Of a stretch of DNA of 64,000 nt, positions 41,984 through 45,123 are shown piece after piece. The notes beneath the pieces are model-generated. The model was not told the origin of the DNA and ran no database searches. It was given only the letters and a program-made list of their open reading frames with translations. Origin of the DNA: an uncultured Bacilli bacterium (GTDB lineage Bacteria; Bacillota_I; Bacilli_A; RF39; UBA660). The stretch covers positions 27,474 to 91,473 of the forward strand of contig CAKOMD010000001.1 of assembly GCA_934096555.1 (NCBI GenBank), given 5' to 3'. Made by a program: the position numbers and the translations under genes. The first letter of the stretch is position 1, and every line of letters begins with the position of its first letter.

Positions 41984-43027
41984 TTATTCAGTATCAGTAC
42001 TTCCACCACTAGTATCATTTGTAGTATAAGTTATAGTACATGTCGTATTAGCAGTTACACTAGCTATTCTTAATGTTACGTTAGAAGAAGTTATGTCAAC
42101 TGTTCGTTTTTGACCATTTGTACACGTTACAGCAGAATAATAGTATTGAGTAAAAATATTAGTTACTACCCTAGAAAAATCATATGAAAAACTCTCACCA
42201 GCATTTACAGATTTAAGTGCCAATTGTGTTTCTGAAACACCAACTAATTTTCTAATAACTGTTACACTATACGCATCAGACGTAGAAACAGTTGAAGATA
42301 ACTTCTTAGTAACATTACCACTCATTATACCAGAACAAGGACTTAATTCTGTACAAGACGCCATTGTATTGCCTTCGATAGGAACGCCATAATAATAATA
42401 AGTTGAACCACTATTTACATTAAGAGTTATACTATTGTCCGTAGTCATCTCATATGTGTTAGAACCATTAATCTTATAGTATATAGCGGTTACTCCACTG
42501 ATACCTTCTTTTGACAAAGTCAAACTATATGTAGTAGACTCTGTATAAGTAACAAGTTTCATATAATTAGGAAGAACAATATTGTCTTTACTTGTAGCTA
42601 CTCCAACCGTAATTGTAATCGTATTAGAAGTATTATTTTTTATTTTAAGTCCAACAACACCATCACTATCACCATTAATAGCACCATTTGGCATAATAGT
42701 ACCAATAGCATTTCTTGTAAATGTTATATCTCCATCACTACCATCATAAATATACCAAACAGCATAATAAAAGTGATCAACGCCACCCTCATTATATAAA
42801 CCGATATTGGCATCCCTTGATTCCCCAGGACCTATTGTTATATCGGCGGTATCAAAAATATCGTCATTATAAGTCAAATCAGATTTAAGAGTTATAGGGT
42901 TAGCTATCTCAGCAGTCGCCGTAAAAACAGCAAATGTAGAACCAACACCTAGTCCAACCAAACCTATTGTTATCACCAAAATTAAATAAATTGTCTTCAT
43001 TGAAATTTTAGTTTCCATAATATACAT
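41984..43027 (-). CDS. Secreted TasA/camelysin-like protein with a SipW-cognate-type signal peptide
   Basis: The N-terminus MKTIYLILVITIGLVGLGVGSTFAVFTATAE resembles the SipW-dependent signal pattern (..LVGGGTFAYFSDTE). The rest is Thr/Ser/Gly-rich. It is tightly coupled (6 nt) downstream of the prepilin peptidase gene. Confidence 0.5.
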   Translation of the reverse strand: MYIMETKISMKTIYLILVITIGLVGLGVGSTFAVFTATAEIANPITLKSDLTYNDDIFDTADITIGPGESRDANIGLYNEGGVDHFYYAVWYIYDGSDGDITFTRNAIGTIMPNGAINGDSDGVVGLKIKNNTSNTITITVGVATSKDNIVLPNYMKLVTYTESTTYSLTLSKEGISGVTAIYYKINGSNTYEMTTDNSITLNVNSGSTYYYYGVPIEGNTMASCTELSPCSGIMSGNVTKKLSSTVSTSDAYSVTVIRKLVGVSETQLALKSVNAGESFSYDFSRVVTNIFTQYYYSAVTCTNGQKRTVDITSSNVTLRIASVTANTTCTITYTTNDTSGGSTDTE

Positions 43028-43033
43028 TCCTCC

Positions 43034-43801
43034 TTATTTAATAAAGAAATTAAGTATTCCTGTTATATCAACCTTAGATATATGTATTAGTATTGCAGCC
43101 ATAGCTAAGAATGGCCCAAAAGGTATTAAATTATCCTTTCTACTAAAGAGCATATAAACCGCTACTGGGAAAGCAATAAAAGTAGCCAAGAATATATCAC
43201 AAATACATAGCGGATATCCTATTACTATTCCAAATAGAAACATTAACTTAATATCCCCGCCACCCATAGACTCTCTCTTAAATAACCTATCCCCTATTAA
43301 TTTTATCACATACATCGTAATAAAAGCAATGATTCCTGCAACAATTTTATAAACAGTATATTCAAGTCCAAAGAATATAAGTTCTAAAATTATAATAGCA
43401 ATAGAGGCTATAGCTATAACCTCGTCAAGTATAATCATATATTCAATATCACTTACAATAATAGTAATTAAACTTGATATAAATATTAAACTAATAACAA
43501 AATTATAACTAAAACCAAATGAATGATATGAAGTACAAAATAATACCCCAGTAATAACTTCCACTAGTAAATAACTTATTGGTATCTTATTGTGGCAGCA
43601 TCTACTCTTTCCCCTCTGTATAACATAAGATACTACAGGTATTAGTTCATACCATCTAAGTTTATGCTGACAACTATGGCAATGACTACTAGGATATAAA
43701 ATAGATTCATTATTAGATAGTCTTACTGCCAAATTATTAAGAAAACTCCCCATTACTGTCCCAAAAATAAATATCACTGTATATATATATATTTCTGCCA
43801 T
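43034..43801 (-). CDS. pilD: Prepilin peptidase (A24 family, PilD/ComC-like)
   Basis: The N-terminal tetra-Cys region is SHCHSCQHKLRWYELIPVVSYVIQRGKSRCCHNKI. There are multiple TM helices and the D...GGGD catalytic region (SMGGGDIKLM). Confidence 0.8.
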   Translation of the reverse strand: MAEIYIYTVIFIFGTVMGSFLNNLAVRLSNNESILYPSSHCHSCQHKLRWYELIPVVSYVIQRGKSRCCHNKIPISYLLVEVITGVLFCTSYHSFGFSYNFVISLIFISSLITIIVSDIEYMIILDEVIAIASIAIIILELIFFGLEYTVYKIVAGIIAFITMYVIKLIGDRLFKRESMGGGDIKLMFLFGIVIGYPLCICDIFLATFIAFPVAVYMLFSRKDNLIPFGPFLAMAAILIHISKVDITGILNFFIK

Positions 43802-43809
43802 AAAATCAC

Positions 43810-45123
43810 CTATAAAATATCATTATACATACTAAACATTGGAACAAATATAGCAAGTAATACAACACCGACTATTCCCGCAAGTAATATAATCATAACT
43901 GGTTCTATTAAACTTTTTAATCTTTGAATTAAAGTTTTTTGTTCTTCTTCGTAGTAGGTTGCTACATTTTCCATCATTATTCCTAGTCTACCAGTCTTCT
44001 CACCAGTAACAAGCATTTCATAAGCTATTCTAGGAAAAGCCCATTTATTTTCAAAAGCCTTCGATAGTCCAGCCCCCGTACTAAGATTAGTAACAGCTTC
44101 TCGTATAATATCTTTATATATTTCATTATTAGTAACTTTACCTAACATTTCAATACTATCAGTAATAAATACATCATGTTTAATAAGTGAAGAAAAAGTC
44201 TTAGTAAACATAACTACTTGATTATCAATAATTACATCTTTAATTATTGGAATATGCATAAGTATATACTGAACAATATATCTAAATTTTTTAATATTTT
44301 TATACATAGCAAGAAGTATAATAATAACACCCGCTATTGCAATAACAATCTTAATAATATTATTCTTAACAAAATTACTAGTATTAATCAAAAATACTGT
44401 AATACCAGGAAGACTAGCTCCCAGCTGACTAAATATATCTTCAAACTTAGGTATAATAAATATAAGTAAGAAAGTTAATACTGCTACTGCTACTACTAGA
44501 ACAACACTAGGATAAGTAAGCGCAGATATTATTTGTTTTCTATTTGTATCAGCAGTCTTATAATAGGCTGCCATATCGTCTAGTGCCTCAGTTAAATTAC
44601 CAGTAAGTTCTGATGTTTTAAGCATATTAATAAGTAGTTTAGGAAATATATTTCCTTGTCTAGCTAATGCTTCACTAAAAGGAGCTCCAGTATTTAGTTC
44701 ATATAATATTTTTTTATATAAATTTTTTCTATTCTTATCTTTAGTTTGCTGATCTAGCATAGTAATAGAATCAGTAAGTGGAATACCACTCTTAATATAG
44801 GTAGATAGCTGTGTTAAAAAGAATACTAAATCCTTATACTTCATAGGTCTTTCTAATGTTAAAAAATCACCAAGTTTACTAATCTTTGTTTCTTTAATCT
44901 CTAATATTTTATAACCCTGACTATTTAAGAAAGATTCTACATCTAACCTTCTAAAAGCGTCAAAATAGCCTTTAACAGTCTTACCCTCTTTGTCGTAGCA
45001 GGTATATTTATATCTTGTTTTAACTTTGCCAACTGCACTATTACCATTAATAGTTTGATTAGAAGAAAAAACGACATTATTACTATTAGTATTATTAGTA
45101 TTTTTACCATTCATTATAATCAC
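43810..45123 (-). CDS. pilC: Type IV pilus / type II secretion platform protein (GspF/PilC family)
   Basis: Two T2SF repeats are present (LTQLSTYIKSGIPLTDSI... and FTKTFSSLIKHDVFITDSIEML...), with 3 TM segments. It is 437 aa with an Asn-rich N-terminus. Confidence 0.8.
   Translation of the reverse strand: MIIMNGKNTNNTNSNNVVFSSNQTINGNSAVGKVKTRYKYTCYDKEGKTVKGYFDAFRRLDVESFLNSQGYKILEIKETKISKLGDFLTLERPMKYKDLVFFLTQLSTYIKSGIPLTDSITMLDQQTKDKNRKNLYKKILYELNTGAPFSEALARQGNIFPKLLINMLKTSELTGNLTEALDDMAAYYKTADTNRKQIISALTYPSVVLVVAVAVLTFLLIFIIPKFEDIFSQLGASLPGITVFLINTSNFVKNNIIKIVIAIAGVIIILLAMYKNIKKFRYIVQYILMHIPIIKDVIIDNQVVMFTKTFSSLIKHDVFITDSIEMLGKVTNNEIYKDIIREAVTNLSTGAGLSKAFENKWAFPRIAYEMLVTGEKTGRLGIMMENVATYYEEEQKTLIQRLKSLIEPVMIILLAGIVGVVLLAIFVPMFSMYNDIL

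Follow-up and report, generated by a model that had tools for sequence, protein, structure and literature searches.

A predicted pilC-pilD operon ending in a gene for a modular secreted protein, with a Tad-type locus nearby, in an uncultured RF39 gut bacterium

Results

We analysed a stretch of 64,000 nucleotides (hereafter the window; positions 27,474 to 91,473 of contig CAKOMD010000001.1, assembly GCA_934096555.1) from an uncultured Bacilli bacterium of the order RF39, and within it a locus of three genes. Two of them, pilC and pilD, encode parts of type IV filament machinery, namely a platform protein and a prepilin peptidase; the third encodes a secreted protein that we call X. We found that the three genes follow one another as a probable operon, that their order is kept in nearly all related species, that X bears a SipW-type signal instead of a prepilin leader, and that a Tad-type locus devoid of its own peptidase begins at the right edge of the window. 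The DNA has a guanine-cytosine (GC) content of ~25%, and the minus strand reads radC, mreC, mreD, pilC, pilD, X, parC, murF, with a yqfQ-like gene on the plus strand between mreD and pilC (Table 1).

PilC matches Pfam T2SSF (PF00482) twice (E 2.8e-52), and its best NCBIfam models are GspF and PilC; against the GspF, PilC and HofC models it reaches 248-283 bits, below the equivalog cut-off of each. Two T2SSF domains in a polytopic membrane protein of ~400 aa mark it as a platform protein. PilD is an A24 prepilin peptidase by its two domains, A24_N_bact (PF06750, E 3.4e-31) and Peptidase_A24 (PF01478, E 1.1e-11), and by the presence of both catalytic Asp motifs, SDIEYMIILD upstream and GGGDIKL. 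The second Cys pair of its N-terminal domain reads CCH, not CxxC.

All three open reading frames (ORFs) were found on the minus strand where they had initially been annotated. The gap between pilC and pilD is 8 nt; that between pilD and X is 6 nt if X is read from the start of its longest ORF (41984-43027, 347 aa) and 15 nt from the ATG at 43018. We adopted the latter start because an AAGGAGG ribosome-binding site and all homologues point there, which gives a protein of 344 aa. Since yqfQ is divergent and lies on the opposite strand, pilC must have its own promoter, and a promoter-like site, recognised by consensus match only, lies in the 91-nt gap between the two genes. At the other end, a 12-bp hairpin stands 17 nt past the stop codon of X (-14.9 kcal/mol, z = -4.2, with 0 of 200 shuffles folding as well); its U-tract is short, and it is the likely terminator of the operon. 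A separate, near-consensus promoter for parC lies downstream of the hairpin. Common strand, short gaps, flanking signals and conserved order point to a single three-gene operon, as the initial annotation had proposed, and the genes are probably co-transcribed.

Table 1. Features of the window and of the Tad-type locus that begins at its right edge. A slash in a motif marks a cleavage site; cells are empty where no value is given.
Feature	Position	Strand	Remarks
pilC	43810..45123	-	GspF/PilC-type inner-membrane platform protein, 437 aa; two T2SSF domains
pilD	43034..43801	-	bifunctional A24 prepilin peptidase, 255 aa; N-terminal A24_N_bact plus peptidase domain
X	41984..43018	-	secreted modular surface protein, 344 aa; signal/transmembrane segment residues 1-30, 'handle' ~50-160, two beta domains ~163-332
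Signal peptide of X, SipW-dependent type	42929..43018	-	METKISMKTIYLILVITIGLVGLGVGSTFA; TIGR04088; cleavage predicted after T-F-A30 (GSTFA/VF)
Promoter-like site upstream of pilC	45138..45166	-	TTAAAA-17-TATAAT with extended TG; consensus match only; inside the pilC/yqfQ gap
Hairpin, likely terminator closing the operon	41938..41967	-	12 bp
Promoter of parC, near-consensus	41884..41912	-	TTGAAA-17-TATAAT (11/12); downstream of hairpin
yqfQ-like gene	45215..45661	+	between mreD and pilC; upstream limit of the operon; position kept in all syntenic loci
radC	47088-47765	-
parC	39349-41865	-
tadC, 3' end (C-terminus of TadC)	63842..64000	-	last 159 nt of the window; last gene of the Tad-type locus
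Cadherin-like protein, Tad locus			membrane-anchored, 737 aa
TadE-like prepilin, Tad locus			MNRKG/QALVEF (G/XXXXEF); PF07811
Second (TadF-like) prepilin, Tad locus			NNKG/QSLVLF
TadZ, Tad locus			ParA-like
TadA-type ATPase, Tad locus			TIGR03819 319 bits (cut-off 373); PilB model 52 bits
TadB and TadC, Tad locus			single-domain T2SSF proteins
T198	62222-62818		GxxYA[YW]Y-type signal
T183	61666-62217		GxxYA[YW]Y-type signal
T514	59720-61264		514 aa; N-terminal motif resembling the SipW type
Piece of a fourth paralogue of T198/T183/T514	61476-61700		74 aa
Reverse transcriptase of retroelement	57192-58262	-	RVT_1, E 2.7e-21
Small Avd-like ORF of retroelement	58231-58569	-
Template repeat of retroelement	59467-59574	-
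Variable repeat of retroelement	59789-59896	-	inside the 3' end of T514

The secreted protein X

X is rich in Thr (15.4%) and Ser (10.5%; 26% together), and its mature form has a mass of 33.7 kDa. No Pfam domain was matched, N_methyl (PF07963) included. The sole NCBIfam match is TIGR04088, the SipW-dependent-type signal peptide, a model of 34 positions that aligns with residues 19-46 and scores marginally above its cut-off (19.9 bits against 19). Cleavage is predicted after T-F-A30; the pattern of the family, T-aromatic-A/x-F, fits the TasA site, which we take to be GGGTWA/AF. The motif GxGST[YF]A[MV]FT is preserved in about 130 representatives of the X family, and the most conserved part of the family is the signal/transmembrane segment with the first ~18 mature residues (K..YL..VI.IGLIGLG.GSTYA/MFTAS.EI.NPI...SNL). 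A class III signal is lacking: the N-terminus METKISMK-TIYLILVITIGLVGLGVGSTFAVFTATAE has no G-1/E+5 pair, and its conserved motif stands after the hydrophobic helix, not before it. No ORF of the window starts with a class III leader of the form G-[FM]-x-x-x-E. The initial annotation was thus right in denying X a prepilin leader and in assigning it a SipW/TasA-type signal.

Structure prediction, which that annotation had suggested, was carried out with AlphaFold2 and placed three beta-sandwich domains after a helix (residues 7-33) and a linker of poor definition. The predicted local distance difference test (pLDDT) score averaged 77 over the whole chain and 87.8 when the N-terminal domain was modelled by itself, with residues ~31-50 below 60. 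Foldseek against the PDB returned for X weak generic matches only (SpaA/SpaC adhesins, Ena fibre subunits, GOLD, PliG); with neither the full-length nor the N-domain model did any match reach E <= 0.001, and TasA was absent from the top 50. A profile search of PDB sequences gave nothing relevant. Peptidase_M73 (PF12389) does not match X, and only one of 18 relatives reaches E 0.022. Mature X therefore gives no match to TasA/CalY in sequence or fold: the name "TasA-like", given to it initially, suits the signal class but not the mature domain.

The homologues of X measure 319-687 aa. They have in common the signal and an N-terminal domain of ~130 residues, followed by different C-terminal modules: one to five repeats of ~75 aa, Flg_new repeats, a DUF6273-like domain, or LRR_5-type repeats. 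An exhaustive phmmer search of 1.84 billion representatives retrieved only 230 clusters of the family. The N-terminal domain occupies residues 1-160 in nearly every case, within proteins of 52-1815 aa, the shortest being evidently fragments. Matches of family members to WxLIP_PGBD (peptidoglycan-binding) and DUF1616 were set aside as noise, as they fell below the cut-off and in inconsistent register.

X had also been likened to proteins at 59.7-62.8 kb of the window, where three secreted paralogues are encoded whose signals are of the GxxYA[YW]Y type (T198, T183 and T514; 59720-62818), together with a piece of a fourth. The likeness holds in the signal region but not elsewhere: hhalign aligns only 37 columns, in that region (probability 52%), and of these proteins X alone reaches TIGR04088, T198, T183 and T514 having no Pfam or NCBIfam match at all. 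A long BLAST alignment had suggested homology between their N-terminal domains and that of X. We rejected this, since the BLAST similarity is confined to the C-terminal DUF6273-like domain and the hhalign alignment does not extend past the signal. T514 shares that C-terminal module, at 41-55% identity, with X orthologues of sister species, and therefore modules shuffle between the two groups. None of T198, T183 and T514 has pilC or pilD as a neighbour.

Conservation of the locus

Of ten GTDB species loci, nine keep the order radC-mreC-mreD-(yqfQ)-pilC-pilD-X-parC-murF, and so does every metagenome contig examined. The related loci belong to 'Clostridium sp. CAG:302' and to uncultured 'Tenericutes' or 'Bacilli' metagenome-assembled genomes; CAG-302 is a family of the order RF39 (PMC7676259). 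Within this uncultured gut family, the operon is kept in one group of genus rank. Across nine species, PilC is 78-99% identical, the same range as the flanking housekeeping genes, and PilD, at 73-96%, is among the best conserved genes of the neighbourhood. Compared with UMGS610, identity amounts to 79% for PilC, 85% for PilD, 80% for ParC, 70% for MurF and 74% for MreC, and to 38% for the N-terminal domain of X. PilC and PilD diverge like their housekeeping neighbours and are therefore both under purifying selection. Because the whole neighbourhood is syntenic, the conservation of pilC-pilD-X counts as a single evolutionary event and not as repeated independent linkage. Insertions were seen around the locus: in one strain, X and parC are separated by a reverse transcriptase of the group II intron type (RVT_1 + GIIM; contig L001, 12060-13340), and several sister strains have an AAA_21/RloB pair upstream of radC.

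X-family genes were also found in five other lineages, none of which (0/5) has pilC or pilD next to them. In another genus (L017, 3508-4956), the gene lies between ftsW and ftsA-ftsZ, and its product combines the conserved N-terminus of the family with a DUF6273-like head; this contig is labelled Paludibacteraceae, and its composition fits the present clade (tetranucleotide r = 0.98). A second such gene lies between xseAB and a UvrD-like helicase gene (L145-L147, 10001-10273) and consists of a 90-aa N-terminal piece only, followed by a 500-nt gap, possibly a pseudogene. The species concerned is a very abundant gut Bacilli member (>1000 contigs, genome about 1.4 Mb, sporulation genes). The remaining three genes follow rnhB (L148), follow the gene for the CCA-adding enzyme (L150), or stand beside sepF-divIVA (L151). 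That of L148 is split into ORFs of 113 and 313 aa by a frameshift or an assembly error (features of this contig at 4281-4670, 10001-11380 and 12859-13700). In the same lineage, a related one of low GC content, three canonical type IV pilin genes (KGFTLIE or KGFTLVE) are scattered among housekeeping genes a few kb from the X-family gene, which makes dispersal of type IV pilus (T4P) genes plausible in these small genomes. The coupling of a TasA-like protein to T4P machinery, one of two readings initially offered, is possible and has a precedent for SipW-type proteins in Clostridium perfringens (PMC11580942); the adjacency to pilC and pilD on which it was based is the inherited synteny of one clade.

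The Tad locus and the missing pilus machinery

The window ends within tadC, the last gene of a Tad-type locus, the rest of which we read from same-species contigs (94.6-98.4% nucleotide identity, colinear to position 64000; L142, 3091-9925). Upstream of yebC, this locus encodes a cadherin-like protein, a TadE-like protein, a second prepilin, TadZ, TadA, TadB and TadC; the small secreted proteins T198 and T183, and with them T514, are encoded just downstream of it and of yebC. Neither an A24/TadV-type peptidase nor a Flp pilin is encoded in the Tad locus or within 10 kb beyond the right edge. PilD accordingly has plausible substrates 19 kb away, because the Tad locus has class III prepilins without a peptidase of their own. 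PilC, on the other hand, is still without a PilB-type partner in the roughly 79 kb covered, because Tad systems use TadB and TadC as their platform.

These findings alter part of the initial picture. The absence of a PilB/PilT ATPase from the locus is borne out, as no PilB/PilT-like ORF occurs in the 64-kb window. Canonical pilin genes and pilB next to the window boundary had been named as grounds for giving up the initial reading, and such grounds exist in part, although the neighbouring ATPase is of the TadA type and not PilB. The idea of an orphan system has to be given up, for the region immediately past the right edge encodes this ATPase along with a pair of platform proteins and a pair of class III prepilins.

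Metagenome contigs were further scanned with an AT-biased Walker A pattern (GPTGSGK[ST]TT), which yielded 120 loci; none of these has a PilC more than 32% identical to that of the window. One (L116; ERZ1463036 NODE-324, 10.5 kb) holds a complete type IVa pilus operon with pilA, pilB, pilC, a pilM/N fusion, a pilO-like gene and three minor pilins (including proteins of 733 and 470 aa). It has no pilD, a GC content of 25.6% and a tetranucleotide r of 0.967 to the window. As the PilB locus of the clade it was dropped, its PilC being 25% identical to that of the window and no housekeeping gene linking it to CAG-302. A second candidate, on a 1.15-Mb contig (L140), proved unrelated.

Other features of the window

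A long cluster of the envelope polysaccharide or teichoic-acid type occupies positions 871-25095, with genes for glycosyltransferases, LicD, an O-antigen ligase-like protein, a flippase, LytR-CpsA-Psr, UDP-glucose dehydrogenase and an epimerase. In a near-identical contig (L152, 99.99% over 16.5 kb) it runs on past the left edge, and the 4.4 kb to the left of the window hold polysaccharide biosynthesis genes only. A diversity-generating retroelement lies on the minus strand at 57192-59896. Its template and variable repeats are 86% identical, with about 14 of 16 mismatches at template adenines, and the cassette is absent from the same-species contig L142.

Discussion

We favour, with moderate confidence, a type IV filament system whose genes are split between loci, with PilD acting on the Tad prepilins at least, while the pilC-pilD operon carries a strain-variable, Sec-exported adhesin in its last slot. 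PilC and PilD would be the conserved parts of this system, with the remaining genes scattered in a small genome. PilD, an A24 peptidase of full length, would most likely process the class III prepilins of the Tad-type locus, about 19 kb upstream, and PilC would presumably be paired with an ATPase of the PilB/ComGA type and with pilins encoded elsewhere. X would be exported by Sec, cut at its TasA/SipW-class signal and displayed at the surface. The mature protein of ~34 kDa consists of a small conserved beta-sandwich 'handle' and adhesin-like modules that are exchanged between strains, be they immunoglobulin-like repeats, Flg_new repeats, a DUF6273-like lectin domain or leucine-rich repeats. 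What ties X to pilC-pilD is most likely the co-expression of adhesion functions or the plain inheritance of a gene order; that the pilus machine takes X as its substrate is less likely, though a functional link is possible.

Several observations sit less well with this reading. Neither a PilB/ComGA-type ATPase nor a type IVa pilin occurs in about 79 kb (the window, 4.4 kb to its left and 10 kb to its right), and the catalytic-Ser motif of S26 (SipW) peptidases was found neither in the window nor in the clade loci covered (<10% of the genome). The signal/transmembrane segment and the first ~18 mature residues being the most conserved part of the X family suggests a dedicated partner. Both filament gene sets adjoin proteins with such an N-terminal motif, pilC-pilD directly and the Tad locus across yebC, although the likeness of T198, T183 and T514 to X was judged by eye and by a weak hhalign score. 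Finally, the SipW-processed proteins BsaC and BsaA of C. perfringens are secreted in a T4P-dependent manner (PMC11580942).

If X were itself a non-canonical pilin or pilus subunit, cut by PilD and assembled by PilC, its position after pilD would be explained, as would its conserved N-terminal hydrophobic helix joined to a variable globular part, as in modular pilins. Yet positions -1 and +5 lack the Gly and the Glu of a prepilin, and nothing separates the n-region from the hydrophobic segment (KISMK-TIYLILV). GSTFA, the conserved motif, closes the helix on its outer side, which is where peptidases of type I or of the SipW type act; A24 enzymes cleave at the cytoplasmic face. Together with the want of an N_methyl match in Pfam and the canonical look of genuine class III signals in this species, this makes a pilin highly improbable. 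X might instead be a self-assembling fibre subunit of the TasA/BsaA type, independent of pilC-pilD, whose N-terminal stretch (MFTAS.EI.NPI) would enter the beta-sandwich of the next subunit as a donor strand. The variable modules would be borne by the resulting fibre or anchor. Such a role for X would be compatible either with our preferred reading or with the T4P-assisted export considered below. The SipW-type signal is consistent with it, and so are the first mature residues, strongly conserved and modelled as disordered (~31-50) ahead of a confident beta-sandwich; the TasA/BsaA family is moreover very divergent in sequence and uses donor-strand exchange, and Ena fibre subunits are the weak top matches in Foldseek. 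We nevertheless consider it doubtful, given the lack of a Peptidase_M73 match for X (one of 18 family members at E 0.022), the absence of TasA from the top 50 PDB matches with none at E <= 0.001, a sandwich of ~110 residues, smaller than that of TasA, and no conserved Lys for an N-E-K lock.

Export assisted by T4P components, in the manner of type II secretion, is the main rival reading and deserves a fuller hearing, unlikely as we hold it to be. After Sec translocation and SipW-type trimming, a pseudopilus piston needing PilC and PilD would move folded X proteins of 34-75 kDa through or beyond the peptidoglycan. The operon would thereby join a part of the machine to its cargo. The tightness of the operon and its conservation in nine species agree with this, as do the unusually conserved N-terminal region of the family, the presence beside the Tad locus of further proteins whose signal motif is similar, and the lack of a sipW gene in the clade loci covered. 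Mature X has at least 33.7 kDa, against a wall-mesh limit of ~25 kDa, and in C. perfringens BsaC needs PilA3, PilB2, PilC1, PilD and PilMNO, and BsaA oligomers need several T4P genes (PMC11580942). However, the adjacency is confined to one clade, in which the synteny is fully inherited and amounts to one event, and it recurs in none of five other lineages with an X-family gene. PilC has no accompanying assembly ATPase or pilin, and the topology of the X motif is that of a site for type I or SipW-type peptidases and does not suit an A24 enzyme. The C. perfringens cargo genes, moreover, lie outside the T4P operons, and a dependence of BsaA on PilC or PilD is not shown there (PMC11580942). In its most specific form, to which we give a low probability, PilC, PilD and pseudopilins encoded elsewhere would make up a Gram-positive piston resembling type II secretion with the X family as its dedicated cargo. 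The members of the family would be surface proteins exported by Sec, in which a SipW-type signal and a conserved N-terminal module for recognition or as a handle are joined to adhesin heads that can be swapped. If this were true, pilC-pilD-X, in an uncultured RF39 gut bacterium, would for the first time link genes of such a machine to a gene for its cargo.

The case for Gram-positive bacteria using T4P components to carry folded proteins across the wall is unsettled and has so far come from one organism, C. perfringens; pilC-pilD-X offers a concrete candidate in a second, unrelated lineage. The arrangement is a reasonable lead for type II-like secretion in Gram-positives and is not in itself evidence of a new mechanism. 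Searches of the literature on pili or competence in RF39 gave nothing useful. The X family, so far uncharacterised, comprises about 230 sequence clusters with a conserved handle and variable adhesin modules, and its members are likely strain-specific colonisation factors of a prevalent, uncultured human-gut clade. The locus also illustrates the scattering of type IV filament genes in a genome of ~1.1 Mb.

Comparison with known systems

The closest parallel is the sipW-bsaA-bsaB-bsaC operon of C. perfringens (Obana 2020, PMC7395162; Kivimaki 2025 preprint, PMC11580942). Two of its products depend on T4P components for their secretion, BsaC plainly and BsaA oligomers less clearly. In both cases the proteins are Gram-positive ones with Sec/SipW-type signals and belong, or would belong, to surface and matrix structures, which they form or decorate; in C. 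perfringens, BsaC does not leave efficiently through the wall unless the pilin, PilB2, PilC1, PilD and PilMNO are present (PMC11580942). The cargo operon there has its own sipW and stands outside the T4P operon, and BsaA is demonstrably TasA-related and polymerises (PMC7395162, PMC11580942). Here, by contrast, the cargo-like gene sits inside a pilC-pilD operon with no sipW nearby, and its product, known from its sequence alone, has a domain that is not detectably TasA-like.

The Tad locus without a peptidase recalls split type IV filament systems, in which the gene for the A24 peptidase lies apart from those for the pilins and the ATPase that the enzyme serves. Examples include Bacillus subtilis, with comC apart from the comG operon, and Gram-positive Tad loci such as that of Bifidobacterium breve, whose tadV lies elsewhere. 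Unlike in such systems, the peptidase is paired here with a full-length PilC and a secreted non-pilin protein, and no Flp pilin was found within 10 kb.

With TasA of B. subtilis and CalY of Bacillus cereus (Peptidase_M73), which are associated with SipW, X shares the TIGR04088 signal class, the T-aromatic-A cleavage pattern, secretion and a beta-rich structure. It differs in a mature domain that matches them in neither sequence nor fold, in the lack of a tapA/sipW operon, and in its large variable C-terminal modules. Non-pilin adhesins that are exported by Sec and associated with pili are known in PilY1 and the neisserial PilC, and Streptococcus sanguinis has modular pilins. X has no homology to any of these, no class III signal such as modular pilins have, and no minor-pilin genes adjacent to it; what it has in common with them is the encoding of an adhesin-like protein together with T4P genes and the grafting of binding modules onto a conserved one.

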